In this document: positions 1 to 55,477 of the stretch, one piece after another
Layout of the letters: the number at the start of each line of letters is the position of its first letter
How positions within the stretch are numbered: position 1 is the first letter of the stretch
Virus record (IMG/VR): IMGVR_UViG_3300036785_000450
Span: 1-62,593 of that record
Reading direction: 5' to 3' (one strand)
Origin: a virus
Taxonomy: Duplodnaviria > Caudoviricetes
DNA: 62,593 bases
Position numbers and translations under genes: made by a program
The notes under the pieces: generated by a model
The model's input: only the letters and a program-made list of their open reading frames with translations
Databases searched by the model: none
Told to the model about the DNA's origin: nothing

Positions 1-290
1 GGCCAGGGTGGGTGGGCAAGTCAGGTGCGAACCGGTGCGGGCCAGGCTGGGTAGTCAGGTAGGGCTGGGGCGGGGCGGGTTGGGATGTCAGGAGGGGGTA
101 GGGGGGGACAGGAGAGGCGGGGAACGGCTCGTCAGGTGCGGGAGGGATGGGGTGGGAGCGGGGCGGGTTGGGATGTCAGGGCAGGAGCGGAATGGAGGGG
201 GCGGGGTAGTCAGGAACGGCAAGGAACGGCGCAGCACGGGGTGGCATGGCTAGTCAGGTATGGGATGGGGCGGCTCGGGCAGGGTAGTCA
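1..290. repeat. Structured pentamer array: GTCA delimiter followed by 6 or 8 GGNNN pentamers; truncated by the window edge
   Basis: GTCA at 20, 54, 87, 131, 175, 209, 253, 287 (spacings 34, 33, 44, 44, 34, 44, 34); 45 of 48 intervening pentamers start with GG; no credible ORF. Confidence 0.9.
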
Positions 291-782
291 TTCGTTGGCG
301 CTGAGAAAAATCCCTGCGATCTCCTCTTCGGAAAACACATCACGAACCAGGGTGGTCTCGTCCGGGATACGGTTGATCATGGTCTCGATCCTGACCGCCT
401 TCAGGTTCATGGTCCGGGCTCGTCGTTTATACATCCTGGCGACGTATTTCAGATCGGACTTGGTCATGTCCCCGATCCGGCGCTGGGTGTGGGAGGCGTC
501 GACCTCTTCGGTCACGTCGAAGGCGGATCGGTGCAGGACAGAACGCCGTTGCCGGTTCTGGGACCGTAGCTGGCCGATGAGCGTCTTCAGGGCGTCCAGA
601 GCGACTTGGTCACTCCACTCGGTCCACAGTTCCGTCCGCTCCGTCCGTAGCTGCTCCCGGATCTCCACGGCCAGCACCCCGGTGTGGTATTGCGCCCCGG
701 CCCCCTCCACCGCCTCCTTGACGTGGTTGCGGATCTCCTCAAACACATCGAAGTAGTCGTCCGAGAAGGAGGATGTGCTCAT
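288..782 (-). CDS. Hypothetical helical protein; its stop codon is the first delimiter of the pentamer array
   Basis: 164-aa ORF with coding-like composition; TATCAT -10 box 8 nt upstream of the ATG. Confidence 0.8.
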   Translation of the reverse strand: MSTSSFSDDYFDVFEEIRNHVKEAVEGAGAQYHTGVLAVEIREQLRTERTELWTEWSDQVALDALKTLIGQLRSQNRQRRSVLHRSAFDVTEEVDASHTQRRIGDMTKSDLKYVARMYKRRARTMNLKAVRIETMINRIPDETTLVRDVFSEEEIAGIFLSANE

Positions 783-833
783 GGCCGGGGATGATACCAG
801 GGAAAATCCTGGCGGGTATCACCGCCAGCCTTT

Positions 834-1244
834 TCAGCTTTTGTCCCCGCCACCGCCTTGGATCAGCCGTAGCTGGCCGTCGATCAGGGTGTAACGGGCG
901 CCCTGGCGCAGATCCAGTTCATCCCAGTCGGGGTGCTCCTTGCGCCAGTGCAGGACCGCCTTCTGAGCCATCGGCACCGTCCACAGCACACCCGACCACA
1001 GCAGTCTCTGTCTCTCATCAACATCAGCTATCCCCATGAGGGTGCCGTGCACGTCGAAGGGAACGGCCGGATTGCGAAGGTGCTCTGGGAAGGTCGCGGC
1101 CACGTCCCGGCGGTACATCAGGTCGGTGGCAGTGGGGGGCCGGTAATGCTTGGGGTCGGCCTCGTACAGCTTCTGCTCCTGCTCCCGTATGATCTCCAGC
1201 AGCCCCGGGTACTTCTGCTCAATGTCGTCGGTGTCCTCAGCCAT
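834..1244 (-). CDS. Hypothetical protein
   Basis: 136-aa ORF, GAGGAG RBS. Confidence 0.75.
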   Translation of the reverse strand: MAEDTDDIEQKYPGLLEIIREQEQKLYEADPKHYRPPTATDLMYRRDVAATFPEHLRNPAVPFDVHGTLMGIADVDERQRLLWSGVLWTVPMAQKAVLHWRKEHPDWDELDLRQGARYTLIDGQLRLIQGGGGDKS

Positions 1245-1286
1245 GTCTCCTCGGTGTGGTAGCAGTGTTTTTTCTGCGGCCTGTGC

Positions 1287-1517
1287 TCATCCTGCCTGGA
1301 ACTCATCCACGCTGTGGGAGGCACTGATTTCAGGTCGGGCCAGGTGCCAGTGCGGAGGGACAGTGAAGGTACTGAACTGGGACAGGATGTGCTCCTGGAA
1401 GGCTTTGACAGCGGCCTGAGCCTCGGGCAGAGATTGGGCCTGGAAGGTAGCGGCGAGGGTGACGCTCAGGTCCACGCTGGTCAGGTAGGTCTTCGGTGCG
1501 GTGTTCTCTGTGCTCAC
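1287..1517 (-). CDS. Hypothetical protein
   Basis: 76-aa ORF, GAGGAG RBS, GTGA overlap with the upstream gene. Confidence 0.7.
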   Translation of the reverse strand: MSTENTAPKTYLTSVDLSVTLAATFQAQSLPEAQAAVKAFQEHILSQFSTFTVPPHWHLARPEISASHSVDEFQAG

Positions 1518-1930
1518 GTCGTCTCCTCGTCTGGCGGTGTGACACCGCTACGACGCAATATTCCTCTCGCCAGGTCCATGACATCGGGGAAGTACCGGAA
1601 GATCGGCCTCCACTCCAGCCATAGCACGGAGTACTCGACCGTCATGACGACCTGATCCATCTCCAGCAGCCTGAGGTAACCGCTCTGAGGACGGCCGTTA
1701 CCTCTACGGATCAGGGACACAGCGGCCCACAGCGGTCCCCGAGAGTCCAAGCTGCCCTGACGGAGCATGAAGCCGGAGGCCGACCGCATCATCTGCTCCC
1801 AGTAACCAGGACCGTAGTTGGTGTGCTGGCGCAACCAGGAACAGTCGCTCCAGCAGGCCCGGCCGTAGGCGGTGATGACGGGCTCCAGTACCAGGGGCAG
1901 ATCCTGGGCCTGCAACAACAGGATGCTCAT
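1514..1930 (-). CDS. Hypothetical protein
   Basis: 138-aa ORF, GGAGGAG RBS. Confidence 0.7.
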   Translation of the reverse strand: MSILLLQAQDLPLVLEPVITAYGRACWSDCSWLRQHTNYGPGYWEQMMRSASGFMLRQGSLDSRGPLWAAVSLIRRGNGRPQSGYLRLLEMDQVVMTVEYSVLWLEWRPIFRYFPDVMDLARGILRRSGVTPPDEETT

Positions 1931-2035
1931 GTAGCTCCTCCCTGTCGGCTCTCAGGCCAACCTGTAGGTGTTCAGCTTCTGTATCTCTGAACTGCGGCCA
2001 GTATGCCGGTCGTGTGCGGCCGCTGCAAGCCCCTG

Positions 2036-2182
2036 CTAGCTCTCGGTCGGCTCCTCAGGGAAGAGCTTGCCCCAGGAGTTGTCCCAGTCCTCCTGGGTGT
2101 CGAGCGGCTTGCCCATATCACAGAAGCCACAGTCAGGGTCGGTGCCGTCGCAGTACAGACAGTGTTCGGGTGCCTTGCCCAT
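2036..2182 (-). CDS. Small CxxC/CxxC zinc-finger-like protein (48 aa, MGKAPEHCLYCDGTDPDCGFCD...)
   Basis: Manually translated; below the ORF-track cutoff; starts directly after the tRNA 3' end. Confidence 0.55.
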   Translation of the reverse strand: MGKAPEHCLYCDGTDPDCGFCDMGKPLDTQEDWDNSWGKLFPEEPTES

Positions 2183-2183
2183 G

Positions 2184-2251
2184 CGCTAGGCCCAGGAGTC
2201 GAACCCGGCCCGACGGTTTTGGAGACCGTCTCCCGCCCAGCGGCGCCTAAC
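2184..2251 (-). tRNA. tRNA-Trp(CCA)-like gene with a shrunken D-loop
   Basis: Acceptor GTTAGGC/GCCTAGC plus G73; anticodon stem ACGGT/ACCGT with loop CTCCAAA; T-arm CCGGG-TTCGACT-CCTGG; D-stem CCGC/GCGG with a 3-nt loop; no encoded CCA. Confidence 0.7.
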
Positions 2252-2966
2252 CAGTGCCGGTCAGGATAGCACTTCTCTCAACTCCCGGTTATCTGTATTC
2301 ATGACGGCTCCAGCCGGTCGCTGCAACTGTATCGGAGCCAGATAGCCTGTCCGATTTGTCCCTACACCTGCGTTGACCTGCTGTTATACCCCCATTACCC
2401 CGTCAGAGCCCTCCCAGACCCCCCATGAACTGGTACTACGAGCCCGTACAGGTACTACACGCTCATCTCACCACCAATCGAGCGTGAGTCAGGTACTACT
2501 CCTCCCTCTCCCACCTACGTGAAAGTCAGTGCTGGTCCCTCCTCTGCCACCGTAGGTGGCTGATGGTGGGGGGTCGTTATGCACTGTTTGCTGGTCACAG
2601 CCTGTCCTATGCGGCTGTAGCTTGACGTAATGGCTGTTATCGGCTCAAACAACCGTTGCTACACAACGGTTTCTGCTACCAGGCTGGTGTGTTGAGCACA
2701 GTCAGTGCTCACTGCATGGCTATGCACTGGTTATGCAGTCATGTACTGCTCCTGACCGGTGCTGACTGATGTTGGTGACTGTCTGTGGTGGTGGCCCCAG
2801 GTACAACACCAGGGTCAGCCAGGCATGAGTTGGTCACCGATGGCTGTCTCAGTGACCTCTCTGGTGCTGGCATGCGACTGGATGCGTGCAGTGGCTCAGT
2901 CCCTGGTTCATGGGCTCAGCCCGTAGTAGTCCTGGGGAACAGGCGCAATCCGGCTACGGTCGGCAG

Positions 2967-3143
2967 ATGCAGGAGGAGGGCGAACACGCCGACAGCCACG
3001 AACGGCTGGAGCGATTGAGGGAGGCGTACGAGACAGCCCGGACCGACTACCGGGTGGCCCTGAGAGTCCACCTGGAGGAGGGGCACGATCTGGTCGTGGG
3101 CCGGAAAGACCCTGAGCGGGTACACCGTGAGACACATCGGTGA
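2967..3143 (+). CDS. Hypothetical protein
   Basis: Start re-called to the ATG 6 nt after a TACGGT -10 box (leaderless). Confidence 0.55.
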   Translation: MQEEGEHADSHERLERLREAYETARTDYRVALRVHLEEGHDLVVGRKDPERVHRETHR

Positions 3144-3153
3144 GGAGGCCGGA

Positions 3154-3249
3154 ATGGACGTCGTGATCCTGCTGCTGGCCCTGGTGCAGTTCCTGCTCGG
3201 GCTGTGGGTCGGGTGGTGGCTCTGCCGGTTGTCCCAGAACGACTCCTGA
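3154..3249 (+). CDS. Small membrane peptide (31 aa)
   Basis: GAGGAGG RBS; MDVVILLLALVQFLLGLWVGWWLCRLSQNDS is a single hydrophobic segment. Confidence 0.55.
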   Translation: MDVVILLLALVQFLLGLWVGWWLCRLSQNDS

Positions 3250-3342
3250 GGCCTCTGTGCGGTCACTGGCGGTCCCTGAGAGCAGAGAGCAGGGGGTGGC
3301 GCCATGTGGGCTCCTGGCGCCGTACAGGGGCCCCTGTGACAT

Positions 3343-3369
3343 GAAGAAGCCCCCCTGTCGAGGGGGGCT
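3343..3369 (-). terminator. Intrinsic terminator downstream of the SNF2 helicase
   Basis: AGCCCCCCT/AGGGGGGCT 9-bp stem with a 4-nt loop, followed by TCTTC on the minus strand. Confidence 0.65.
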
Positions 3370-3433
3370 CCTGTGCTGGCTTAGGTTGTCAGGACCGGGT
3401 AGGTCTTGGGGCGGGGTGGCAGGGGTGGTCAGG

Positions 3434-4927
3434 TCAGATCGTACCCTCCTCCCCCTGAGGGAAGCGGCCTTCGCCGTACTTGGACAGCAGGTGGGCCGCC
3501 AGGCGGTCCATCATCACCTTCTGGATGTCGGCCACCTCACCCTCGGCAATGGTGCCGTCGATGGCCGCTTTGAAGGTGTCCCACTTGGCTGCGATCAGGT
3601 CGGCCAGCCACACGTCCACCGTGCCAGGGACGACCAGGGTATGGGCGAACACGGCCTCGGCCTGGCGACCGATGCGGTTGATGCGATCCTCGGCCTGGGT
3701 GACGGCCCCAGGATGCCATGGGCTCTCCACGAACAGGCAGTCGGTGACGTTGTGCCCATTGCCCACCAGCGTGTGGCCGAAGCCGTGAGCCTTGAGCGAG
3801 CACACAATCACCTGGGCTGAGCCCTCATTGAAGCGGGCCTTGGCGACCTCGATGTCCTTGGCCCCCTTCAGGTAGATGGCCTCGATCCCGGCGGCGTTCA
3901 GGGCGTCGGTGATGCCCTGCTGGGTGGCGACGTGATCGGCCCAGACCACCAGCTTCTTGCCCGGGTTGTCAGCCAGGAAGTCGGTGATCCAGTCGACCGC
4001 AGCCGGGATCTTGCACTGGCTGACCGACAGCCGCAGGGCGTTCAGCAACTCCAGCATGAAGGACTGGTCGTTCTTGGCGACGAAGTTCTTCTCGACGTCC
4101 CAGTAGGGGTCGAGGTCACCGTTCAGGCTGAGGTCGACCTGCACCCGGTGAGTCTCGGACATGTCCAGCACCTCGTTGCGGAGGCGGCGGATCAGGAACT
4201 CATTCCTGGCCTTGTTGTTGAGCAGGTCGAGGCGGCTGGCCCCTTTGAACTCCCAGCCATGCCCGTTGTTCTTGGGGTCACAAAAAGTGAACATGAAAGA
4301 ATAGGCGTAGTCCCTCTCAGTGGGCTGAGCGGCCCGGGGGCGAGGGGCGATGTCTTCCAGCCGACCCATCATCTGAAGCTGGGTGACAAGCTCGACCGGC
4401 CGGTTCAGGATGGGGGTGCCGGTCAGCAGCAGCACCAGACCCTTGCGGCTGCGGACGTCGGCCGCGATCTTCAGGGCAGCCTTGGTCTGCTGCGCCTTGG
4501 GGTCCTTGACGTTGTGGCTCTCGTCCACGATGAGCGAGGTGAACCCCTCAGCCACCAGGGCGTCAGCCCACTTGGACAGCAGGTTGAAGGAGATGATTGC
4601 CACCTTGGCCGTCAACTCGTAGGGGCGGGTGCCGTTCAGCACCTGCACGTCCCACTCGGGGGCGAAACGGGCGATCTCTTTGGCCCAGTTGGCCTTGATC
4701 GAGGCCTTGACCACGATGAGCACCTTGGGGTCGAGGGAGTGGGCGGCGGCGTGGACCTTGGTGGTCACGATGGCCTGGGCCGTCTTGCCCAGGCCCTGCT
4801 CGTCACCGATGAGGCAGCCCTTGCCGTCGTTGGTCTGGAAGATGGAGTAAGCCACCCCCACATGCTGGAAGGGGAGGAGGTGCTGCCCGTCCGGGAGGTA
4901 GGAGTCGAAGTTGACGGTGGTAGCCAT
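3434..4927 (-). CDS. SNF2-family (SMARCAL1-like) helicase/translocase
   Basis: Motifs GDEQGLGKT, DESH, LTGTP, QAEDRINRIG; start re-called to MATT 7 nt after TACCAT. Confidence 0.93.
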   Translation of the reverse strand: MATTVNFDSYLPDGQHLLPFQHVGVAYSIFQTNDGKGCLIGDEQGLGKTAQAIVTTKVHAAAHSLDPKVLIVVKASIKANWAKEIARFAPEWDVQVLNGTRPYELTAKVAIISFNLLSKWADALVAEGFTSLIVDESHNVKDPKAQQTKAALKIAADVRSRKGLVLLLTGTPILNRPVELVTQLQMMGRLEDIAPRPRAAQPTERDYAYSFMFTFCDPKNNGHGWEFKGASRLDLLNNKARNEFLIRRLRNEVLDMSETHRVQVDLSLNGDLDPYWDVEKNFVAKNDQSFMLELLNALRLSVSQCKIPAAVDWITDFLADNPGKKLVVWADHVATQQGITDALNAAGIEAIYLKGAKDIEVAKARFNEGSAQVIVCSLKAHGFGHTLVGNGHNVTDCLFVESPWHPGAVTQAEDRINRIGRQAEAVFAHTLVVPGTVDVWLADLIAAKWDTFKAAIDGTIAEGEVADIQKVMMDRLAAHLLSKYGEGRFPQGEEGTI

Positions 4928-4979
4928 GTCCCCCATGGTAGCGGATGGCATGAGTGTGTGAACGTCAGCATGCGTGATT

Positions 4980-5135
4980 TCAAGCATTCCCTCCCTCCAA
5001 CAAGTCTCTGGCCTCTTCCTCGTCTAGCCCGTACTTCATGGCAAACTCCAAGACCGTGTCGTCCCAGAGGGATTCACACTTCCTCTCGTACTCGTCCTGT
5101 ACGTCAGCGATCTCTCTTCTGGTCGGCATCATCAT
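4980..5135 (-). CDS. Small acidic hypothetical protein (51 aa)
   Basis: Manually translated; ATGA overlap with the upstream gene. Confidence 0.55.
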   Translation of the reverse strand: MMMPTRREIADVQDEYERKCESLWDDTVLEFAMKYGLDEEEARDLLEGGNA

Positions 5136-6079
5136 GGCAGGATCTCGGCCAGCATCAGCACGAAGGCGGCGGGCAGATTCTCAGGCTTGCCGCACCGGCT
5201 CACGGCGTTCAGGACGGTGGCGATGTCAGCCTGGGCCAGGCCCGAGGCGTCAGTCGCCCCCAGGGCGGCTCCTGCCGCCTCACAGACCTTCACGGCCTCA
5301 GGGCTGACGTTCAGCTTGAAGGTGCGGGCGAAGGCCAGCACCTGGGGCGAGGGGTTGGCCGAGTTGGCGTACAGCGAGCGCACGAAGGCACGACCAGGCA
5401 GAGCCCGCACGGCGTCACTGGCGGGCTGCCCAGGAGCGGTCAGGGCGGTCTTGATCACGATGCGGCCATCGGTGCCCAGCCAGATCTGGTAGTCGACCTT
5501 GGGGGCAGCCGGGGTGACAGGAGTGGCAGTCAGCAGAGCCTGGGCGGCAGGCGAGATGGTGAAGTCGTGCTCATTCACGAACACCTCGACCTGGGGTGAG
5601 GCGTCGACCACGTTGACCCTGCGGTTGGCGTCCCAGCGGCGACCAGGCAGAGCCTGCACCAGGGGGAGGAAGGTGCTGAAGTCAGGGTCACCAGATGCCC
5701 AGCGGATGCCCAGGCGACCATCCGCCACGTCAATGGTGCGGGCGGCGAGGTGCTTGGCCCTCTTCTCATACGCCCTGGCGTCGTTGCGAGCGGCGTGGTT
5801 GGTGCTGCGGCTCACGGCCTCCTTCACCACGTCCAGAGTGGACACGTCAGTGCCCGTGTACCGGAGGATCTGCTCGCGGTACTTGTTGGCGATGCGGGCG
5901 CACTCAGCCTTGACGTCGTCAGTCCAGGCCGAGAAGGGGACAGAGGCGACACGGCGACCGTAGTGCGTGTCCTGCCCATCGAATCCCACGTAGTCGAGGG
6001 AGCGGGCACCGTCACAGTGGGCGGCGACGGCCACGATGCCCTGGTAGACCTGCTCATTCTGCTCTTCAGTGGTAGCCAT
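5132..6079 (-). CDS. Protein with two HARP-like repeats, resembling the N-terminal region of phage SNF2 helicases
   Basis: CDGA..D..GF..D N-terminal motif; VQALPGRRWD and VRALPGRAF repeats; leaderless TATCCT promoter. Confidence 0.65.
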   Translation of the reverse strand: MATTEEQNEQVYQGIVAVAAHCDGARSLDYVGFDGQDTHYGRRVASVPFSAWTDDVKAECARIANKYREQILRYTGTDVSTLDVVKEAVSRSTNHAARNDARAYEKRAKHLAARTIDVADGRLGIRWASGDPDFSTFLPLVQALPGRRWDANRRVNVVDASPQVEVFVNEHDFTISPAAQALLTATPVTPAAPKVDYQIWLGTDGRIVIKTALTAPGQPASDAVRALPGRAFVRSLYANSANPSPQVLAFARTFKLNVSPEAVKVCEAAGAALGATDASGLAQADIATVLNAVSRCGKPENLPAAFVLMLAEILP

Positions 6080-6227
6080 GGGGTCAGGATACCTGACGGG
6101 GACATGGATGTGTGGTCAGATGCATGTGTTTTCTTGGCTGACCCCAACTTATGCCGGGGGTGCCCTGATCTCGGAGTCCCACTGGGGTCACGCCTGTGAT
6201 GGTACCACAGCTACATGCTGTAGTGAG

Positions 6228-6261
6228 CAGCACCATGCCAGATTCCTCTGGCATGGTGCTG
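6228..6261. other. Perfect 15-bp inverted repeat (hairpin, terminator or operator)
   Basis: CAGCACCATGCCAGA-TTCC-TCTGGCATGGTGCTG. Confidence 0.6.
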
Positions 6262-6306
6262 GTATGGCTACCGTGCTCACTCCCACGGGACGTGGTGGTT
6301 CCTCCT

Positions 6307-6600
6307 TCACCAGTCCCAGCGGCTGACGGCCTCCCAGCGCTGCTGGCAGCAGAGCCGGTTGGCCTCGACCTCGACGGCCTCCTGCACCACGGTGTCGTAC
6401 ACCTCGCTGTGGCCCTTGCCGTCGGCCTGGTAGGCCACGTACTTGAGCCCCAGGCGGATGCGCTCAGGCAGGCTGGCCCTGGTCACCTGGCCCATGCGGA
6501 CCTCGGCCTCGACCATGCGGAGCACCCGCTGCACGGCGATGTCCCCCTCATCGGAGTACATGCCGTAGCGGGGGAAGTCACGCGACCAGCGCCTGGTCAT
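6307..6600 (-). CDS. Hypothetical protein
   Basis: MTRRWSRDFPRYGMYSDEGD...; TGATG coupling to the upstream gene. Confidence 0.7.
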   Translation of the reverse strand: MTRRWSRDFPRYGMYSDEGDIAVQRVLRMVEAEVRMGQVTRASLPERIRLGLKYVAYQADGKGHSEVYDTVVQEAVEVEANRLCCQQRWEAVSRWDW

Positions 6601-6863
6601 CAGAACGCCTCGACCTTGAGGGTGGTGAAGTTGGTGCCCTCCTGCCAGTCGGGGGCGGCGTGGCGGGGGCAGGCGACGGCGACGTGGATCTCCGGTGACT
6701 TGCCAGCTTGGCGATCCTCGGCGTAGACCCAAGTGTCCTGGGTCAGGCGGCGGGTGGCCCGGTTGAAGCAGCCACCACGACCGGTGGAGACGCAGCACTG
6801 GCGCCCCTCACGGCGGTTCTTCTCCGACCGCTCGTATTGCTCCTGGCTGATGCTGTAGCCCAT
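6600..6863 (-). CDS. Hypothetical Cys-containing protein
   Basis: 87 aa; TGATG coupling on both sides. Confidence 0.7.
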   Translation of the reverse strand: MGYSISQEQYERSEKNRREGRQCCVSTGRGGCFNRATRRLTQDTWVYAEDRQAGKSPEIHVAVACPRHAAPDWQEGTNFTTLKVEAF

Positions 6864-7093
6864 CAGACTGTCTCAGCGTTCAGCCGGTCGGCCTCTTCAG
6901 CCGCCTGGAGCAGTTGCAGGGCCAGCTTACGGGCATCAGCCGGGGTCCAGTACGTGTGGGAGAAGTCACTGGCGACGTACAGGCTGACCTTGGCAGAACC
7001 GTGCGGACAGTGGCGGGTGTCGTTGACCTCGGCCTTGGCGCACTCCTTGGCGTAGGTGCTGTTGTCAACGAAGAGGTCGCTGGGAATGGACAT
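6863..7093 (-). CDS. Hypothetical protein
   Basis: 76 aa, AAGGAG RBS. Confidence 0.7.
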   Translation of the reverse strand: MSIPSDLFVDNSTYAKECAKAEVNDTRHCPHGSAKVSLYVASDFSHTYWTPADARKLALQLLQAAEEADRLNAETV

Positions 7094-7128
7094 CGGGTGC
7101 TCCTTGGTGTGGTAGGTGGTCTAGAAGG

Positions 7129-7175
7129 ATGGTACCGCATCCACATGCCTGCGTGGTGGCAGGTATGTGGATTAT
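7129..7175 (-). promoter_or_regulatory. Early-type promoter with palindromic CATG operator
   Basis: ATCCACATGCCTGC/GCAGGTATGTGGAT inverted repeat (13 of 14 match); extended -10 TGCGG-TACCAT; resembles the 10405 and 12950 sites. Confidence 0.6.
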
Positions 7176-7176
7176 C

Positions 7177-7467
7177 TCAGAGGTTGTCGGCCCCGTGGTT
7201 GTGACCACCGCACTGGCACTCACAGTCAGGACCGGTGGCACCCGTGCAGCGAGCGTCGCACTTGCGGGCATCGGAGTAGCGGCCAGACACCCGCCGCCAG
7301 ACGTACAGCCCGCAGCCACAGCTACGGCAAGAGCGGTGAGCCTGGTGGCCTCCACCACGTACCGAGGTGAGGTAGAGGAACTCGGAGGCGTAACCGTCAC
7401 TGGCGATATCCTCGGCATGGCCCGTCTTGCACCTCGGGCACCTGGCGACGTAGCGGATCTCAGCCAT
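7177..7467 (-). CDS. Cys-rich zinc-binding protein
   Basis: CPRC, CRSCGC and KCDARCTGATGPDCECQCGGHNHG; TGATG coupling. Confidence 0.75.
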   Translation of the reverse strand: MAEIRYVARCPRCKTGHAEDIASDGYASEFLYLTSVRGGGHQAHRSCRSCGCGLYVWRRVSGRYSDARKCDARCTGATGPDCECQCGGHNHGADNL

Positions 7468-7784
7468 CAGACCGTCACCTCCACGATGACCTTGCCAGCC
7501 TCGATGGGCAGCAGCTTGGCCCCCAGGCGCAGGCAACGGGTCTTCACCAGGGAGGAGGCGGAATGGGCGTAGCCCACGATCTCGGTTCCCCTCACCAGGG
7601 CGTAGGGGGCACCGGAGCGGGTCTTCAGGATGACGGTGTGAACCGCCTTGGCAGGGACAGAGGGGTCGGTGTGCTCAGCACACTCGGCGTACACCTCACC
7701 ATTGCGACCGGTGAAGGTGGTGACGGCAGGCTTGCCGCACAGGCCAGTGGCGAAACGGACGGTGCAGGTGAGGTCGGTGGTCAC
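7467..7784 (-). CDS. Hypothetical protein
   Basis: 105 aa, GAGAGGA RBS, C/C/CxxH residues. Confidence 0.7.
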   Translation of the reverse strand: MTTDLTCTVRFATGLCGKPAVTTFTGRNGEVYAECAEHTDPSVPAKAVHTVILKTRSGAPYALVRGTEIVGYAHSASSLVKTRCLRLGAKLLPIEAGKVIVEVTV

Positions 7785-7817
7785 GGCAGATCCTCTCAGG
7801 TTGCGGTAGCTGGTGTC

Positions 7818-7868
7818 ACCTTACCGCATGACCACATGAGAGTGTGAGCACCCCCATGTGGTCATGCG
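7818..7868 (-). promoter_or_regulatory. Early-type promoter with a perfect 14-bp inverted repeat
   Basis: CGCATGACCACATG-N16-CATGTGGTCATGCG; minus-strand TGCGG-TAAGGT -10 box. Confidence 0.55.
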
Positions 7869-7885
7869 TCACAGCAATGTAGCGG

Positions 7886-8773
7886 TCAGTCGAGCACCTC
7901 AGCCAGCAGAGCCTGGGCCTGGGCCAGGTTGCGAGCGCTCTTGGCGGCGGTGTCAGCCACCTGCTCAGCGGTCAGTTGGTGGGCGTAGGGGTTGGGCTTG
8001 GCCTGCTCCTTGGCGACCTTGGCGACGGCGTTGGTGGCTGAGCGCTGCCAGTCGACACCAGCGGCGTTCAGGGCGGGCACCAGGCGGCGCACGGCGGCGG
8101 CGAAGTCACTGGGGTGATCCAGGCCGTACCAGGCCAAGGACTGGAATGCCTGGCTCAGGGCATTGCGGGCGGCGACCTTGGTGGCGATGACGCCGTACTC
8201 ACCCCGCAGGGGCGAGCCGTCCACGTCGGTGATGCCCTTGGCGTCCTTGTCAGCCTGCTTGGCTGCCTTCTCAGCCGCCTTGGCCTCAGCGGCCTCGCGG
8301 TCGATGCGGGCGGGCCGGTGGAAGTTGGGGTTGGTCGGGGCGGTGGGGAAGCACACGGTGCATGCCCTCTCACCCCACTCCTCGATCATGGCGGCCTCGT
8401 CACAGTCGGCCAGGTCGACCAGCCAGGAGTACTCAGTGGTGTGGAAGCAGGTGGTGCAGTCCAGGCCACGGTGGACATGACCATTGGCGTTGGTGACGAG
8501 GAAGTAGCGGTTCCAGGGGCGGCGGTTGTACTCAAGCTGGAGAGGAGCGGCCTGGGTGATCAGGGCGTCAACCTCAGCCCGGTAGCCCTCGACCTCAGTG
8601 GTGGTCCGGTTGATCAGATCCCAGTAGGGGCTGGCCGTCTTGCGGTTCTTCAGGTGCTCGATGTAGGCGACACCCTGGCGGATCTGACCCCAGAGCTTGG
8701 CCTGCTGGTCGTAGTTGGTGGCGAGGACGGTGTCGATCTCGACAGGGGTCTGGGTGCTGGGGTCGGTAGCCAT
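7886..8773 (-). CDS. Hypothetical protein with a H/C-rich metal-binding motif
   Basis: GHVH...CTTC...CTVCFP; leaderless TACGCT-N6-ATG. Confidence 0.8.
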   Translation of the reverse strand: MATDPSTQTPVEIDTVLATNYDQQAKLWGQIRQGVAYIEHLKNRKTASPYWDLINRTTTEVEGYRAEVDALITQAAPLQLEYNRRPWNRYFLVTNANGHVHRGLDCTTCFHTTEYSWLVDLADCDEAAMIEEWGERACTVCFPTAPTNPNFHRPARIDREAAEAKAAEKAAKQADKDAKGITDVDGSPLRGEYGVIATKVAARNALSQAFQSLAWYGLDHPSDFAAAVRRLVPALNAAGVDWQRSATNAVAKVAKEQAKPNPYAHQLTAEQVADTAAKSARNLAQAQALLAEVLD

Positions 8774-8892
8774 GAGGACAGCGTACAGGATAGGGACATG
8801 CCTGTGTGAGCATTGACGTGTGACATGAGTCACCGCATGATTTCGCTCTCCCCGACATGCACTCCCACTCCAGGGGAGGTACAGTGGCTCCC

Positions 8893-9276
8893 ATGGCTAC
8901 CAACGACATCCCCGAGAGCATCAAGAGCCTCTACCGCCAGCCCAGCGCCGACCACGTCATCTGCGTGCAGGTGCGCCGGGGTGATCCGCCCCAGCACGTC
9001 GCTGACGACATCGAAGACCTGCTGGAGCGCTCCTCACGGTTCTGGGGCGGCGAGCAGTGCGATAGCTGCGGCTGCCACTCCTACGTCATCGAGCGCAACC
9101 CGCACTTCCCCAGCGATCTGGTGCAGGGCTGGCAGGTGCGCTGCTGCGGTGACGCAGACGAGGCGCAGCGCTGGCAGGGCGAGGGCGCTGAGCCTGCGTC
9201 GGTCGAGGCCATCCGCACCGGCTGCGGCGCTGTCTACAACCTGCGCTGGGAGCATGAGGATCGGGTGTGCTTCTGA
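8893..9276 (+). CDS. Hypothetical Cys-rich protein
   Basis: Leaderless TACAGT-N7-ATG; CDSC, CC and GCG motifs. Confidence 0.75.
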   Translation: MATNDIPESIKSLYRQPSADHVICVQVRRGDPPQHVADDIEDLLERSSRFWGGEQCDSCGCHSYVIERNPHFPSDLVQGWQVRCCGDADEAQRWQGEGAEPASVEAIRTGCGAVYNLRWEHEDRVCF

Positions 9277-10404: not shown

Positions 10405-10457
10405 AATATCCGCATGCCTGACCTCACAAGGGCATGCGGGTGCGGTACACTTACCTC
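10405..10457 (+). promoter_or_regulatory. Early-type leaderless promoter with CGCATGCC...GGCATGCG palindrome
   Basis: AAATATCCGCATGCCTGAC-N9-GCATGCGGGTGCGG-TACACT-N6-ATG. Confidence 0.65.
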
Positions 10458-11567
10458 ATGGCTACCACATCGAAGTCCAAGCCCAAGACCAAGGTCCAGC
10501 ACGACGGCCGTGTCACCCGACGCGACGTCTTCGCTGAGACCACCGCCAAGTTCGTCGCCGCCCTCAAGGCTGCCCTCGCTGGTGGTGTCATCCCCTGGCA
10601 CAAGCCCTGGAAGGTCACCGGCCTGGGCGGCGCACCTCGCTCGCTCGCCACCGGCAAGCTGTACCGGGGCATCAACGTCCTGATCCTCATGCTGGAGGCC
10701 ATGGAGAAGGGCTACGGCTCCAACCTCTGGGGCACCTACAACCAGATGGCCGAACTGGCTGGCCTGGTCAAGAACGTCGATGTCAAGACCAAGCGCACAT
10801 GGTTCACCTCGCCCGAGTTGGCCGATGGCACCCCCGACCCCACCCCCCGTGGCGTGCGCCGGGGCGAGAAGTCCACCAGCGTGGTGTGGGCGGGCAAGAT
10901 CACCGTGCCCGAGAAGGACGCCCAGGGCAACATCGTCATGGTGGACGGCAAGCCCAAGCTGAAGACCATCCACCCGCTCAAGTTCTTCCCGCTGTTCAAC
11001 CTCGACCAGTGCTCCTTCCCCGAGGGCAGCAAGGGCGCCAAGCTCCTGGCTGCCGCCGCTGCCAAGCCTGAGGTGACCCCGCTGGAGCGGGACCAGGCCG
11101 CTGAGGCGCTGGTGGCTGAGTACCTGGCGGATGGCCCCTCGCTGGGTCACGGGGGCAACAGCGCCCACTACGTGCCCGCCGCCGACCACGTCCAGATGCC
11201 CAACCTGGCTGACTTCGACTCCACCGCCCACTACATGTCCACGCTGTACCACGAACTGACCCACTCGACCGGCCATGACTCCCGGCTGAAGAGGGAGGGC
11301 ATCGCCCAGGGCACGTTCGGCGGGTTCGGCTCCAAGGTGTACAGCGAGGAGGAGTTGGTGGCCGAGATCGGCGCCGCCATGCTGTGCGCCATCGCGGGCA
11401 TCGACCAGGCTGCCGTCTTCGACAACAGCGCCGCCTACGTCGCCCACTGGATCTCCAAGCTGGAGAACGACAACAAGCTGATCTACCGGGCTGCCCGTGA
11501 CGCTCAGAAGGCCATCGACTGCATCCTGGGCACCACGTTCGACAACGACGAGGAAGGCGAGGGCTGA
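10458..11567 (+). CDS. ardC: ArdC-like antirestriction protein (ssDNA-binding domain plus zincin-like MPTase)
   Basis: PWHKPW, YRGINVLIL, WGTYNQ, VRRGEKST, FNLDQ, HELTHSTGH..RL.R, YSEEELVAE. Confidence 0.9.
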   Translation: MATTSKSKPKTKVQHDGRVTRRDVFAETTAKFVAALKAALAGGVIPWHKPWKVTGLGGAPRSLATGKLYRGINVLILMLEAMEKGYGSNLWGTYNQMAELAGLVKNVDVKTKRTWFTSPELADGTPDPTPRGVRRGEKSTSVVWAGKITVPEKDAQGNIVMVDGKPKLKTIHPLKFFPLFNLDQCSFPEGSKGAKLLAAAAAKPEVTPLERDQAAEALVAEYLADGPSLGHGGNSAHYVPAADHVQMPNLADFDSTAHYMSTLYHELTHSTGHDSRLKREGIAQGTFGGFGSKVYSEEELVAEIGAAMLCAIAGIDQAAVFDNSAAYVAHWISKLENDNKLIYRAARDAQKAIDCILGTTFDNDEEGEG

Positions 11568-21769: not shown

Positions 21770-21904
21770 TCAGGTCAGCAACCGCACCACCAAGGCGATG
21801 GTGAGGACGACGGCGACAAGGAACAGGGCCAACAAGACCAAAATGACGCAGCCGTCCGATGGTAGGTCATCACCCTCTTCACTGCATGGTTCGTCGGATG
21901 ACAT
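21770..21904 (-). CDS. Small single-pass membrane protein (44 aa)
   Basis: Acidic N-terminus followed by VILVLLALFLVAVVLTIALVV; manually translated. Confidence 0.5.
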   Translation of the reverse strand: MSSDEPCSEEGDDLPSDGCVILVLLALFLVAVVLTIALVVRLLT

Positions 21905-23318
21905 CCTCTGCCTTATCAGGATCGACTCGCCGCAGCGTCTCGGTTCTGGCCTCCCCGAACAGCTTGCTCAGGACACCAGTCTGCGCTCGTCCCTCGACCG
22001 TCACCTTGAGGAAGTCCCGGTTGTCCTGAATGTCCTTGACAGACCGGGTCATGGACATGAACCGGTCCAACTCTGACGACAGGTTGGCGTCAGGGTACCC
22101 ACCTTGTAGCTGCTCAGCCAGGAAGGTGAACTGGAGGCGCTGGCCCTGCATCTCCAGCAGGCTGTACAGGACGCCCAGTAGTTGGTCACGGTTACGGATC
22201 TCCATCGGGATCCGGTACTTGCAAGAGGAGCCCGCCTCGTACAGGGAGCAGACCACGGCTAGGGCGCAGGAGTCACATTTCCGCAGGTCAGCCGTCCCCA
22301 TGTGGGCGACCAGGCTCGTCACGGCAGTGGTGCCGGGACCATCCGGGTTGGCGATGGTGGAAGTTACCGGCCGGTAATCGAAGACCGGCAGTGGCTGGCG
22401 CCCGTCACCGTCTGCGAGCACTTCGGCATGATCGTGACCAACTAACTCCACCGCCGTCGAGCCGTTGTCGGAGACTCGCCCGTTACCTTCGGGAGTTGAT
22501 CCCACTCGCTCAGGAGCCTCCAGATGGGCCTCCATCTGCCGCCAGGCCCAGATGGTGTAGCGAGACACCTCAGTACCAGCATCGGCCAGGATGGCGTCGG
22601 CGTTAAAGCCCATCTGGGTGAAGTGCTGGCGATGCCGGGTGCGGATCTTGTCCTTCTCATCGGCCGGGTAGCGCCGCAGGCGGTTCTGGTCCCAGATGAC
22701 GGTCTCCCCGAATCTCGTTGGCGAGATCCAGGAGGAGCTAAGTAGCGTGGAGTACAAGCCGCCAGGCGCATCATACGGATGGCTGAAGGACAGCCCGTGC
22801 AGGTTGAGTCTTGTGCGTCTGACTAGGGAGGATAGGACGTTCTGAGTCCGTATGGCGACTGGCGGCACACCCAGATTGCTGTAGTGCTCCGCTATCTCCC
22901 TAAGCGCAGGGCCACCCTGGTACTCATGCCAAATGGGCACGAACTTGTCGTCAGCCAGACCAGCCCATACCGCCCGCTGTGTGGATAGCCAGTCCTGACC
23001 CAGGCTCACGGCGTCGTACTCGGTGAAGAAGGTCAGCCGCTCCAGGTTCTGCTGGACGAAGTCCACGTAGTCGGACAGGAACTCCTCGTGCTGGCTGACA
23101 GTCCATCCCTTCTTCTCGGTGCTCGTAGCACCCGACACCAGGAAGATCTTCTGATCATCAGGGAAGTGATCGGCCAGCAGCCACTGCTTTTTCGGTAGCC
23201 GTGGCTTCAGGTGCAGATAGTTGATCGCCACATGGGGGACATGCTCTTGCACCAGCAGCTTGCGCCAGGCAGGCACCTCAGCCCCGGCAAAGTACAACTC
23301 CAACTTGCGTAGGTTCAT
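21879..23318 (-). CDS. Degenerate queuine tRNA-ribosyltransferase (TGT/DpdA)-like TIM barrel fused to a Cys-rich and helical C-terminal domain
   Basis: LYFAG, IFLVSGA, FVPIWH, LHGL, SSSW...RFG; CDSC...C...C; ATGA overlap with whiB defines the start. Confidence 0.6.
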   Translation of the reverse strand: MNLRKLELYFAGAEVPAWRKLLVQEHVPHVAINYLHLKPRLPKKQWLLADHFPDDQKIFLVSGATSTEKKGWTVSQHEEFLSDYVDFVQQNLERLTFFTEYDAVSLGQDWLSTQRAVWAGLADDKFVPIWHEYQGGPALREIAEHYSNLGVPPVAIRTQNVLSSLVRRTRLNLHGLSFSHPYDAPGGLYSTLLSSSWISPTRFGETVIWDQNRLRRYPADEKDKIRTRHRQHFTQMGFNADAILADAGTEVSRYTIWAWRQMEAHLEAPERVGSTPEGNGRVSDNGSTAVELVGHDHAEVLADGDGRQPLPVFDYRPVTSTIANPDGPGTTAVTSLVAHMGTADLRKCDSCALAVVCSLYEAGSSCKYRIPMEIRNRDQLLGVLYSLLEMQGQRLQFTFLAEQLQGGYPDANLSSELDRFMSMTRSVKDIQDNRDFLKVTVEGRAQTGVLSKLFGEARTETLRRVDPDKAEDVIRRTMQ

Positions 23319-23590
23319 CCTGCCCTCTGATCGATCCTGAAGGGAGACTGGGTCAGCGTGTGACGAGTCCCCGTCCACGATAGACGCAGAGGACGCCGCT
23401 CCCGCTCCGAGGTACCGCCCCAGATGCCCCAGCGCTCGTTGGTCGAGATGGCGTACTCCAGACACGTCTGGCGCACCGGACAGTGGGAGCACACCGCCTT
23501 GGCGGCATCGACGTACTCCCCCCGCTCAGGGAAGAACATATCCACGGCCATACCAGCGCAAGCGGCGTCTTTCCGCCACTCATGGTTCAC
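23315..23590 (-). CDS. whiB: WhiB-family transcription factor
   Basis: W...AAC, FFP, AKAVCSHCPVRQTCLEYA, GIWGGTSERER. Confidence 0.95.
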   Translation of the reverse strand: MNHEWRKDAACAGMAVDMFFPERGEYVDAAKAVCSHCPVRQTCLEYAISTNERWGIWGGTSERERRPLRLSWTGTRHTLTQSPFRIDQRAG

Positions 23591-28436: not shown

Positions 28437-28721
28437 ATGGGCGTCGTAGATTGGCGGGCTTGGACGGCACAGGGCGGCGGTCAGATGCCGACTGCCCCCA
28501 ACCCGCCTGGCACCCCGTACGTGCCGAATACCCCGTTCCCTGGGGTGAATCCGATCACCGACCTGATCAACATGACCACGTCGGTCCCGCCCTACCCGAG
28601 CCTGTCCAGCCCCGGCAACTGGGTCACGGTCAAGCCGGTCGACCCCTTCGGAGGCTGGACCGACCAGCAGGAGACCCTCAACAAGACGATGCGCCCGGTA
28701 GTTGCTGGCCTGACCTCGTAG
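28437..28721 (+). CDS. Pro-rich hypothetical protein
   Basis: 94 aa, GAAGGA RBS. Confidence 0.7.
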   Translation: MGVVDWRAWTAQGGGQMPTAPNPPGTPYVPNTPFPGVNPITDLINMTTSVPPYPSLSSPGNWVTVKPVDPFGGWTDQQETLNKTMRPVVAGLTS

Positions 28722-32626: not shown

Positions 32627-32854
32627 ATGACTACCACACAGACTGTCGAACAGTTCTGGCGAGAGGTCAACGGCGACCGCTGCCGTTGGCGCACCGCCCG
32701 CAAGCCTCAGTGGTGCGGACATCATCAGAACGGCCAACATGATGCCCAGCAACCAGCCATCCAGATAGGCGACCAGTACCTCGACACTGGTGAGGTAATC
32801 CAAACCTGGGCCACGGCCAAGTGCTGCGCCGACTGCGCCGTCAAGCCAGCATGA
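32627..32854 (+). CDS. Small Cys-containing protein
   Basis: RTARK...C...I.IGDQY...CCADC. Confidence 0.7.
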   Translation: MTTTQTVEQFWREVNGDRCRWRTARKPQWCGHHQNGQHDAQQPAIQIGDQYLDTGEVIQTWATAKCCADCAVKPA

Positions 32855-33516
32855 GGGATGACTTCGCCAAGGTGGCAGAATGGGTACGTCGGGAGAAGCT
32901 GGACATCATCAGACGTGTCCCTGAGGGAACGCCCCCGATTCTGAATGACTGCATCCTGTGCCTGCGCCGAGGTCAGCACCAGTACTCGGTCAAACCTGAC
33001 ATGGATAGTGATCACCCCTGGAGCGCCCTCACCTGGAGCACTGCTTGTCTTGGCTGTGACGAGTACTTCTGGCTCTCTGATGACGGGGAGCGGGTGGTGG
33101 TACAACGATTCACCCTGGGCGATGCCCACGTCGATGCAACGACCGGGTACCCCGTCGACCCCCCCTACCCCACCACCGCTTCCTACCACTACGAACAGCA
33201 GGGAACCACGGTCATCTGGGGCCATGTCTCCGACAAGGATGTGGAACGCTTTTCTTCTACCTGGGAACTCTGGCACGCCAGTCTGGCTGGCTGGAAGATA
33301 GAGAGCGGGACCATGCCTGATGTCATACAGGCACTGCGCCAGAAGGCGGTCAAGGAAGGAATGACTGCGAAGGACCGAGACCAAACGGAATACCAGGGAC
33401 GGGCTCGCTTCGTATCCACTTGCGAGGGTGTGAAGGCGGTCATGTGCAGCAACATGGCTGCGGCGGGACTGAATGCCCTGATCGCATTTCAGGATGGCGA
33501 GGCGTACCGGGCATGA
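32851..33516 (+). CDS. Hypothetical protein
   Basis: ATGA coupling; CILC and CLGC. Confidence 0.7.
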   Translation: MRDDFAKVAEWVRREKLDIIRRVPEGTPPILNDCILCLRRGQHQYSVKPDMDSDHPWSALTWSTACLGCDEYFWLSDDGERVVVQRFTLGDAHVDATTGYPVDPPYPTTASYHYEQQGTTVIWGHVSDKDVERFSSTWELWHASLAGWKIESGTMPDVIQALRQKAVKEGMTAKDRDQTEYQGRARFVSTCEGVKAVMCSNMAAAGLNALIAFQDGEAYRA

Positions 33517-34000: not shown

Positions 34001-34158
34001 CCGAACAGAACGCCGATTATGGCGTGATCGATCAGGACACGCTGAACAGCTACGACAGGGCGCTCGCACGACTACGAGACGCCCACGAGGACGAGTTCCG
34101 CAGCCTGCTCGCCGTGGAACGAGGCACGCAGATCGACAGTTCTGGTGGTGAGTCATGA
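33997..34158 (+). CDS. Small hypothetical protein
   Basis: GTGA and ATGA coupling. Confidence 0.6.
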   Translation: MTEQNADYGVIDQDTLNSYDRALARLRDAHEDEFRSLLAVERGTQIDSSGGES

Positions 34159-35147
34159 CCGAGGTCTACCGCCCCATCGACGTGCTCGACAAGCAGGCCC
34201 AGATGGTTCGCTGGTGGAAGACCAGCCAGTACCGGCACAGCTTCGCTGACGCCTTCGGCTACGCCGTCCAGAAGTACCGCAGCACCATGGGCGAGAGCGT
34301 AGACACCTTCATCGCCAGCCGACTCAACGATGCCGAGACCTTCTACGTCAGGTCCAACATCATCGACCGGCTCTGGCACTTCACCGACGTGTACGAGACC
34401 CATGGTCACGAGACCATCGAGTACCAGGACTTGCCCTGCCCCAGGGGATTCATCTTCCTGGAGCGGCCGATCCACATGATCGACGCCCGTGGTCGGGTGT
34501 GCTCGATCAAGATCATCCTGTGGTCCGAGGAGCGGGGCGGGGTGTCCATCGTGGAGTTCAGCGACGCCAAGGATCCCCTGGACGAGATCAACCACCTGGA
34601 CCGGCTGAAGACGGGCAAGCCGACCAGTGACATCACCGAGTACCCGCTCTTCCACATCATGCCCTGGGCCTGGGGCAAGAAGGTCCGCAACCTGACCGTC
34701 GCAGACTTCTCCGAGGACCAGCCCGGCGTCCCCGAAGATACTGAGGCTGACCGGCAGACCATCAGGGACAACATGCCGACTTCAGTCCAAAGCATGGACC
34801 GCTTCAACGGGTTCCTGCTCTCGCTGTGGGAGTTCGTGCAGGAGCAGGTGCCCTACCGCATGCGGGCCGACCGGTACATGCTGAAGCGGCTCCAGCGGGC
34901 GCACAGCCCCATCTCTGAGGTGACCGTCGTTGACCTGCGGCCCGTCGACCAGCCGCCCAAGCACACCGACCCGGACCACGTCCCTGAGACCGTGCTATGG
35001 AGTCACCGCTGGCGAGTGCGTGAGCACAAGCGTCGCTGGATCGACAAGCACGGCAACTACCGGGAGACCACCGTGTCAGCCTGCGTCAAAGGGCCGGAGT
35101 ACCTGCCCCTCATCGAGAAGGATCGGGTTTATCATGTCAAGCGTTAA
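34155..35147 (+). CDS. Hypothetical phage protein
   Basis: 330 aa; LP.P.GFI..E.P; C-terminal WSHRWRVR.H.R...VKGP..LP. Confidence 0.8.
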   Translation: MTEVYRPIDVLDKQAQMVRWWKTSQYRHSFADAFGYAVQKYRSTMGESVDTFIASRLNDAETFYVRSNIIDRLWHFTDVYETHGHETIEYQDLPCPRGFIFLERPIHMIDARGRVCSIKIILWSEERGGVSIVEFSDAKDPLDEINHLDRLKTGKPTSDITEYPLFHIMPWAWGKKVRNLTVADFSEDQPGVPEDTEADRQTIRDNMPTSVQSMDRFNGFLLSLWEFVQEQVPYRMRADRYMLKRLQRAHSPISEVTVVDLRPVDQPPKHTDPDHVPETVLWSHRWRVREHKRRWIDKHGNYRETTVSACVKGPEYLPLIEKDRVYHVKR

Positions 35148-54292: not shown

Positions 54293-55477
54293 ATGTTCGG
54301 TCAACGATTCAACCGCTGGGAAGTCATCGACGGGCCTGATCTCAGCAACCCAACCCATCCAAAGTGGCTCTGTGAGTGCGAGTGCGGCACCACACGCTGG
54401 GTGCAAGCCCAACTTCTTCGTAGCGGGCGATCCCAGTCCTGCGGGTGCCACAGAAAAGAACAGGCTACGACTCACGGACAGTCCAAGACCAAGCTCTACC
54501 GTGTCTGGGACACGATGTGGGCACGCTGTACCAATCCAAGCAACCATCGCTACAAACACTACGGAGCACAAGGGATCGAGGTCTGTGAGGAATGGAGCCA
54601 GTTCTCCACCTTCTGGGAATGGGCAAAAAAGTCTGGCTACCAGGATGGCCTCACCATCGAGCGCAGTGACAACGATGGTGACTACACCCCGGAGAACTGC
54701 ACCTGGATCCCCAAGCGCAGCCAGCAGCGCAACACCCAGAAGAGCCTACGTGTCACCGCCTGGGGCGAAACCAAGGTGCTGCCCGAGTGGATCGAGGATG
54801 ACCGCTGCTCGATCAAGTACCACACGCTCTACGCCCGCCTACAGCATGGCTGGACCCCTGAGGACGCCATCGGTCTGCCCTACGGAGCTAGAGGGCGTGT
54901 GCCCGTGAGTCGGAACGCCTTGAACTCCGGGCAGTTTCTCCAGGGGCCGAACGAGACAAGCACCATCTCTAATGTCGTCAATCACCTACAGAACCGTCTT
55001 GGACCGCAGCACGGTGAAGAACACTTCGTGGTGCAGTCCGGTTCTGGACGCATCCTGTCACGCCTCAAAGGCCGTCCTGGCGCAGGCGAGATCGATACCG
55101 GCAAGATCCCGACCAAGAGGTTGGCAGGAAACATCTCGGTCCATAATCATCCTGGTGTCTCTAAGGGTGCCTTGTGCCCTCATTCCGAGAACGACCTGAC
55201 AAATGCTCTTGCTGTTGGGGAACGACGATCCATCGTGGTTACAAAGCCAGGTGTTCACACTGTCGAGGTACGTCATCCGACAGATGAACGTGATCATCCA
55301 GACTTTGAACGACTCCTCGACAAGGCTGAGAGACTTGAACAAGATCTGCCTATTCGGCCTACTCCTCATAACGAAAAACAATACGGACAAGCTGTGCATG
55401 GAAGACTTGGACAACTGGCGCAAGAGCATTCACGGTGGATGTCTTACCATTTTGAACCTCACGAAAGTGAAGTCTGA
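54293..55477 (+). CDS. HNH endonuclease in frame with a JAB/MPN-like domain; probable internal start at 54905
   Basis: WLCECECG, SCGC, RCTNP...YG.QGI.VC.EW, IER.DNDGDY.PENC.W; then VSRNALNSGQF...VHNHP...HSEND. Confidence 0.8.
   Translation: MFGQRFNRWEVIDGPDLSNPTHPKWLCECECGTTRWVQAQLLRSGRSQSCGCHRKEQATTHGQSKTKLYRVWDTMWARCTNPSNHRYKHYGAQGIEVCEEWSQFSTFWEWAKKSGYQDGLTIERSDNDGDYTPENCTWIPKRSQQRNTQKSLRVTAWGETKVLPEWIEDDRCSIKYHTLYARLQHGWTPEDAIGLPYGARGRVPVSRNALNSGQFLQGPNETSTISNVVNHLQNRLGPQHGEEHFVVQSGSGRILSRLKGRPGAGEIDTGKIPTKRLAGNISVHNHPGVSKGALCPHSENDLTNALAVGERRSIVVTKPGVHTVEVRHPTDERDHPDFERLLDKAERLEQDLPIRPTPHNEKQYGQAVHGRLGQLAQEHSRWMSYHFEPHESEV

Follow-up and report, generated by a model that had tools for sequence, protein, structure and literature searches.

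VIPR has been described as a phage system for RNA-guided DNA silencing or recognition that uses a gapped pentamer code (bioRxiv 10.64898/2026.04.26.720920). In the available part of that text, a vrRNA comprises 9–16 GGY/NN pentamers and a structured 3′ tail, and Vipr is a stand-alone RAMP of ~20 kDa; seven VIPR types are distinguished, ‘staggered’ vrRNA arrays and alternative NNNGG, YNNNG and NNNNG vrRNAs are named, and some satellites encode vrRNAs of their own. For Vipr of Escherichia phage SUSP1, the accessible part of a second text (10.64898/2026.04.26.720927) assigns the reading of two guanines to H17, D177, R138 and W178, while R179 helps to form a pyrimidine pocket. A third text (bioRxiv 10.64898/2026.10.21.760802) reports, in the portion available, non-canonical 5-nt arrays of the forms GAC/NN, CAC/NN, WGT/NN and TGH/NN located beside Vipr-like folds.

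A Delimited Pentamer Array at the Left End of the Contig

The window, by which we mean the whole stretch of DNA analysed, is one contig of 62,593 bases with a GC content of 62% and a right end cut inside an ORF. Its structural genes, including those for a tail sheath and tail fibres, are myovirus-like. The features discussed below are as follows:

1–290, + strand: truncated repeat array, G-rich strand, recognised from its parse, from shuffles and from the same architecture beside RAMP genes in relatives
288–782, − strand: 164-aa accessory (vap-like) gene, with its TGA stop inside the first TGAC delimiter and with homologues at RAMP loci
809–828, − strand: terminator-like hairpin found by a scan, between the 136-aa ORF 834–1244 (−) and the 164-aa gene

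Parsing of the left end of the contig (1–290, + strand) gave a 19-nt partial unit (1–19), followed by seven units that start with GTCA at positions 20, 54, 87, 131, 175, 209 and 253, and an eighth, closing GTCA at 287–290. In order, the units measure 34, 33, 44, 44, 34, 44 and 34 nt and consist of GTCA plus 6 or 8 GGNNN pentamers, with one unit 1 base short, just as the preliminary description had proposed. GG opens 44 of the 47 complete pentamers, or 45 of 48 if the 4-nt GGAT is counted, and positions 3–5 are mixed. The claim that GG is fixed and the last three bases vary thus stands, and the pattern lies far above shuffles. Position 3 is A in 12, C in 9, G in 20 and T in 6 pentamers, i.e., C or T in 15 of 47; the lack of a pyrimidine restriction, which the preliminary description had also remarked on, is a trait common to the whole clade presented below.

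In 2000 mononucleotide shuffles of the array the eight copies of GTCA compared with 0.54 on average and 4 at most, the autocorrelation of GG at lag 5 was 54 vs. 25.1 ± 4.8 (maximum 43), and 38 pentamers lay within runs of at least four vs. 5.5 ± 4.1 (maximum 22). The density of GGNNN runs of that length is 131 per kb in the array, whereas the remaining contig has 0.34 per kb on one strand and 0.48 on the other. No second array of the same kind was found in the 62.6 kb, where other runs have 4–6 pentamers and no delimiters; an isolated run of six GGNNN without delimiters at 28583–28612 (−) is probably due to chance in GC-rich DNA. Since the repeats run off the left end of the contig, the array is incomplete. 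A CRISPR array is characterised by identical direct repeats of ~23–50 nt that alternate with unique spacers of similar length; here, a GG with a period of 5 nt and a delimiter of 4 nt are all that is constant. A search of positions 1–1500 against Rfam gave no match at E ≤ 1, and distant blastn of positions 1–8000 against a phage collection gave no match.

Read on the minus strand, the array is TGAC(NNNCC)n and has the sense of the accessory gene 288–782. The TCA of the final GTCA (288–290) is the TGA stop of this ORF, and the coordinates confirm the earlier statement that the repeats begin, on the gene strand, exactly at that stop codon.

A Stand-Alone Cas7-Like RAMP Family Beside Similar Arrays

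IMG/VR was first scanned with a loose pattern, which matched 60 loci. Most of the matches were rejected as (GTCAG)n microsatellites or as canonical GGYNN arrays with GGTCA as an in-phase pentamer. (GTCAG)n pentanucleotide microsatellites were seen in L005, L011, L020 and L026, in the metagenome loci L149, L160 and L170, and in others; in L026 the tract adjoins a GGGAA-rich tract of period 6/7. Among the first-scan loci, only L001 and L038 resembled the window, sharing with it the GTCA delimiter, units of 34 nt and an unrestricted third base; L006 was intermediate. The latter locus has an array of GTCA-delimited 39-nt units at ~7015–7320 (+) and a RAMP gene at 8079–8909 (−), whose 276-aa product matches the canonical Vipr profile with E 2.2e-44, yet carries a G-x-G-A-S-R loop.

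The arrays of L038 and L001 abut a gene for a protein of 226 aa that ends in GLGASRSQGFGRFEV and is split into two ORFs in L001. We found 345 homologues of this protein at E ≤ 0.001, no Pfam family, and nothing relevant by a sequence search of the PDB. A Foldseek search with its AF2 model (pLDDT 79.5) returned Cas7/Csm3 of type VII and III-A complexes, with a best E of 8.6e-7 and 120 matches at E ≤ 0.001.

A different family of ~200 aa, found beside GGYNN arrays, is present in 40 of the 60 first-scan loci, with adjacency where distances were checked. Its profile matches a 195-aa protein of SUSP1 (E 1.5e-46), whose gene is flanked by GGYNN runs and which has H17, R138, D177, W178 and R179, the residues named in the available text of 10.64898/2026.04.26.720927. 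On the grounds of the profile match, the flanking runs and the published residues, we took the ~200-aa family to be Vipr. Alignment of the RAMP family with the Vipr family by hhalign (92.5%, E 4.9e-7, 127 columns including the G-loop) shows the former to be a distant homologue of the published protein. The two differ in the loop itself. In the RAMP family it reads G-x-G-A-S-R in 22 of 27 members and has AT, TS, AA or SS in the other five, so that Arg alone is kept and the guanine-reading Asp and Trp are replaced in 27/27 aligned members. In canonical Vipr, D/E and W/F/Y occupy these places in 16 of 18 pattern-matching members.

Results of a tighter pattern scan of metagenome contigs (30 loci) included four with both a free third base and a RAMP-family match, and all four belong to the clade of the window. 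The closest analogue of the window is L164: a homologue of the accessory gene with its TGA stop inside TGAC is followed by an array of 22 units, 20 of them with GTCA and mostly of 29 to 49 nt (5n+4), then by a ribosome-binding site and a RAMP start codon 13 nt past the array. In L001 (12036–12829, −) and L164 (4529–5307, +), whose arrays are most like that of the window, the RAMP gene is split into two ORFs, which could reflect gene decay or assembly error next to repeats. In L038, a pentapeptide-repeat protein with ADLxx repeats is encoded at 5044–5709 (+), ~0.9 kb downstream of the RAMP gene.

Over the clade as a whole, the lengths of 282 units peak at 33, 38, 34 and 43 nt; 150 of them fit 5n+3 and 58 fit 5n+4. 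Among the delimiters there are 359 copies of GTCG and 49 of GTCA, and the window, L164 and L107 represent the minority type with GTCA and 5n+4. The third pentamer base is G, C, A and T at frequencies of 0.44, 0.23, 0.18 and 0.15, a pyrimidine share of 0.38 vs. 0.94 in canonical loci. Comparison of four pairs of related loci showed arrays that are 55–68% identical with 128–650 gap columns and flanking genes with 76–95% identity and 0–6 gap columns. Arrays turn over faster than their flanks.

The RAMP gene was also found in 13 genome records, 11 of them from actinomycetes (e.g., Nocardiopsis, Streptomyces, Streptosporangium, Actinomadura, and Streptacidiphilus). Both genes, together with a visible array, are also present in one cultured phage, the cyanophage Microcystis phage Mae-JY09.

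The 164-aa Accessory Gene

The product of ORF 288–782 is predicted to be mostly helical (AF2 pLDDT 87.8). It has no Pfam family, one weak PHROG match of unknown function, and only hypothetical viral clusters, none of them named, in the Atlas; a comparison with PDB folds gave none at E ≤ 0.001, the best being a MarR-type repressor at E 1.1. BLASTP detected homologues in 29 of 60 RAMP loci, with identities of 22–36%. A profile of the family (A3) matched 55 of 73 RAMP loci (60 viral, 12 genomic and one cultured phage, all fetched by their RAMP gene), always on the same strand as the RAMP gene, and had no hit among the 60 loci that the loose scan had returned. The upstream protein of L070, which looked homologous to the 164-aa ORF by eye, gives E 17 with it in pairwise BLASTP and was placed in the family only by the profile (E 1.9e-54 with A3, which includes the L070 protein). 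We found no profile similarity between this family and the accessory gene of canonical loci or the 146-aa protein of SUSP1. No intact locus with a closely related 164-aa gene turned up in IMG/VR or metagenome contigs.

Of the 55 matched loci, 53 have the accessory gene on the upstream side of the RAMP gene and two have it directly downstream. A strict detector located an array in the interval separating the two genes in 23 of the 53 upstream-type loci, always in C-rich strand sense. In 34 of the 73 loci the same detector saw no array up to 1.5 kb from the RAMP gene; some of these are misses, as Mae-JY09, which was scored blank though its array is visible by eye, and others may truly be without an array. 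By its profile matches and gene order, the 164-aa ORF is assigned as a conserved accessory gene of a stand-alone Cas7-like RAMP system.

Upstream of the gene, the sequence TATCAT (complement of 791–796) was noted by eye 8 nt before the ATG. Together with the hairpin at 809–828, it may mark the start of a separate unit that would run from the 164-aa gene through the array to the missing RAMP gene. One terminator-like site was found vs. 0.9 expected in shuffles, and scans for sigma-70 promoters found none in positions 1–2500 of the window, in L074 or in L131.

Several other genes of the contig were recorded. A tRNA-Trp (CCA) gene lies at 2183–2251 (−), separated by ~1.4 kb from the accessory gene. 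An SNF2-family helicase (3434–4987, −; Pfam E 1.3e-22) and an anti-restriction-like protein (10434–11567, +; PHROG E 1.4e-63) are encoded within 11 kb of the array, and no link of either to the RAMP system was seen in relatives. A 537-aa ORF at 21879–23492 (−) matches the PHROG ‘queuine tRNA-ribosyltransferase’ (E 2.2e-43). Enzymes of this kind are used by phages for 7-deazaguanine DNA modification, and one may be of interest in a phage that also has a G-rich guide array. The ORFs 32821–33516 and 34155–35147 weakly match ORFs of L001, have no Pfam family, and are presumed to be ordinary phage genes unrelated to the array. Those at 54293–55477 (+), HNH-endonuclease-like with E 8e-55, and 56680–57285 (+) both match the same ORFs of L015 and L119, and may be duplicated homing-type nucleases.

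The Expected RAMP Gene and Alternative Explanations

Searches of the window by tblastn, phmmer and two profiles, covering 443 ORFs and 1180 six-frame pieces, found no RAMP gene, the best E values being 0.22–1.8. The preliminary description had already reported this absence, which truncation would explain: in relatives the RAMP gene lies on the side that is missing here. An independent Logan contig (from one DNA run that may be the source) breaks inside the array, ~20 nt beyond the left end of the window, and many contigs with RAMP homologues are only 1–2 kb long. As both assemblies stop in the array and homologue contigs are short, the RAMP gene is expected, by synteny with relatives, to the left of position 1. 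For annotation this means that such arrays break short-read assemblies and hide the RAMP gene when a single contig is inspected.

Alternatively, the phage could carry an orphan or decoy array, with an accessory gene and units and no RAMP gene of its own, and could borrow or soak up the RAMP of a co-resident element. The absence of the gene from 62.6 kb would fit this, as would the split RAMP genes beside the closest arrays, L001 and L164, and the satellites with vrRNAs of their own mentioned in the available text of 10.64898/2026.04.26.720920. However, the contig is cut exactly at the position of the RAMP gene in relatives, both assemblies stop within the repeats, and accessory and RAMP genes occur together on one strand in 55 of 73 loci, a set that was fetched by RAMP genes and does not sample accessory genes lacking one. 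We therefore consider an orphan array improbable.

The array could also act at the level of DNA, as a G-quadruplex or as protein-binding repeats that regulate replication or the expression of neighbours. The preliminary description had named a G-quadruplex role as an alternative, and the potential for it is present: positions 1–290 are 55% G on the + strand, runs of 3–7 G are closely spaced, and at least four runs of at least three G within a short span occur, e.g., at 61–84, which is a property of the sequence only. Folding of the array as RNA revealed no structure beyond shuffles on either strand (z 0.20 for the G strand and +2.0 for the C strand), as this explanation would also allow. A G-quadruplex, however, needs no strict 5-nt phase, no GTC(R) delimiters at 5n+3/5n+4 and no three free positions, nor does it predict a linkage to a Cas7-like protein with an RNA-binding G-loop. 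With the delimiters and the RAMP linkage unaccounted for, we regard a DNA-level element as very unlikely.

It is scarcely credible, and largely refuted, that the array is a repeat serving genome ends or packaging, or simply an unstable satellite on which assemblies break. In favour of this, such repeats terminate both the window and L001, many homologue contigs measure 1–2 kb and units are quickly gained and lost. Against it, the array lies inside the contig with a gene on either side in L038, in L164 and in no fewer than 23 further loci, its G-rich strand is directed inward in the window but outward in L001, and a satellite does not hold two positions constant while leaving three free.

Strand of the Putative Guide RNA

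Returning to the array as a source of guide RNA, we somewhat favour the operon-sense, C-rich strand, 5′-UGAC(NNNCC)n, over the G-rich strand, because of the departures of the clade from canonical VIPR, including array orientation and the G-loop. Of the 39 RAMP loci with detected arrays, 33 have them in C-sense only, four in G-sense only and two in mixed orientation. In canonical Vipr loci the sense is G in 37 of 38; the sole exception, L006, is also the sole one with a G-x-G-A-S-R loop.

Arrays inspected by eye in L071, L105 and L164 span the distance from the accessory stop codon to 13–20 nt before the RAMP ATG. As they reach the ribosome-binding site of the RAMP gene and leave no room for a promoter, the RAMP mRNA must contain array sequence. 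In Mae-JY09 the order is RAMP gene, C-rich array, hairpin. In L074, a strong 15-bp terminator with a T-run lies on the + strand directly before a downstream G-rich array. On the strand of L074, L079 and L082 that would yield C-rich RNA, the hexamers TTGCGS and TATCAT are both conserved at a distance of 16 nt, while the spacer between them varies; this putative minus-strand promoter is below the scan threshold (first hexamer 3/6), and the three loci are related. Just past the array end of the same loci (L074 ~1330–1350, L082 ~290–310, and L079) a hairpin GCCRC-CCTGAT-GYGGC is conserved with a compensatory change, G-C in L074 and L079 and A-T in L082. It could be a 5′ leader stem or the 3′ tail of the array transcript, and a tail of a G-rich RNA is equally possible. 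Analogy speaks against the C strand, in that the published Vipr reads GG and a CC repeat that mirrors the GG repeat would be a coincidence.

Comparison with Known Systems

The nearest counterpart is VIPR type II of Escherichia phage SUSP1, at least in the parts of the published texts available. Like it, the locus is phage-borne and built of tandem pentamers with fixed GG and free bases; the partner of the clade is a small, stand-alone, remotely homologous Cas7-like RAMP with a C-terminal G-loop; and the genes form a two-gene operon with an accessory gene, with long intergenic regions filled by arrays.

Measured against the same texts, the differences are as follows. The third base, a pyrimidine in the GGY/NN rule, is free in the clade (Y 0.38 vs. 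0.94). Units have 6–9 pentamers (6 or 8 in the window) instead of 9–16, and abut via a 3–4-nt GTC(R) with a phase shift of 5n+3 or 5n+4 in place of a structured 3′ tail. The loop has A-S-R in 22/27 members where SUSP1 has D177-W178-R179. The accessory family is a different one, and the arrays lie mostly upstream of the RAMP gene, in C-rich sense in 33/39 vs. 1/38 canonical loci, which is our own count and not a published criterion.

The ‘staggered’ arrays resemble the clade, as far as their available description goes, in that units abut, the end of one marking the start of the next, and in a relaxed pentamer consensus. Four canonical Vipr loci (L023, L031, L033, and L051) have GGYNN arrays split by GGCAG|G with a one-base phase shift, together with an accessory family of 150–200 aa and Vipr loops of E-G-R type, and may represent these published arrays. 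Their one-base shift is formally like the GTCA of the window, but the clade differs from these inspected loci in delimiter sequence, G-loop and orientation.

Similarly, the arrays in the available text of 10.64898/2026.10.21.760802 share with the clade a period of 5, a fixed motif other than GGY and a position next to Vipr-like folds; unlike the clade, they consist of ~10 repeats of a fixed trinucleotide plus NN, and GG/NNN or NNN/CC with GTC(R) delimiters is not named in that part of the text.

The best structural matches of the modelled partner, Cas7 (Csm3-like) of CRISPR types III and VII, suggest a likeness in the logic of a filament on a guide. Unlike those types, the clade has no repeat–spacer array, its guide information being interleaved at a 5-nt period without a contiguous spacer, and the inspected loci showed no other cas gene adjoining the RAMP gene.

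Judged from these sequence comparisons, the system is a variant clade of a known kind, with a repeat rule, a form of unit, a protein loop, an accessory gene and an array orientation that depart from the described systems. It is set apart from the published VIPR types by text descriptions only, and may already be one of the seven.

Proposed Function and Implications

Taken together, the array at 1–290 is most probably a truncated guide array of a VIPR-like system. The preliminary description had guessed at a VIPR variant, and comparative genomics supports this through the RAMP-linked accessory gene, the matching arrays and the Vipr-homologous RAMP. The window would then hold the distal part of a guide array carried by a phage from soil, whose host is probably an actinomycete. 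The full locus would lead, on the minus strand, from the 164-aa accessory gene through an array of perhaps 10–25 units to a gene for a Cas7-like RAMP of ~225 aa. By analogy with the published VIPR, each unit of 33–49 nt would be cut out at its GTC(A/G) delimiter and loaded with one RAMP protomer per pentamer, i.e., 6–8 protomers on the units of the window. The protein would hold the fixed dinucleotide, and the variable bases would read the gapped DNA of a competing phage or mobile element, leading to its silencing.

Gapped targets were searched for with 12 rules, with skips of 0–3 nt and three choices of variable bases. The best matches equalled those of shuffled controls, both for the seven units of the window (in 2.4 Mb) and for 89 runs from all loci (in 1.2 Mb).

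A bolder reading, which we offer as tentative, is that the clade mirrors VIPR: a RAMP without the guanine-reading Asp/Trp may be loaded with C-rich 5′-(U/C)GAC(NNNCC)n RNA, cut from its own mRNA leader into guides of 33–49 nt and 6–9 repeats, in a system widespread in actinomycete phages and prophages. If true, the pentamer code could be written with another fixed dinucleotide, and perhaps with three instead of two reading bases.

VIPR was described only in 2026, and the window leads to a sizeable clade, with 345 homologues and 60 IMG/VR loci. Cultured handles on it are Microcystis phage Mae-JY09 and two strains with prophage-like loci, Nocardiopsis tropica JCM 10877 and Streptacidiphilus carbonis NBRC 100919. 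The clade would provide a test of how a RAMP reads fixed bases and, if its guide strand or its number of reading bases differs, would widen the known design space of the code.
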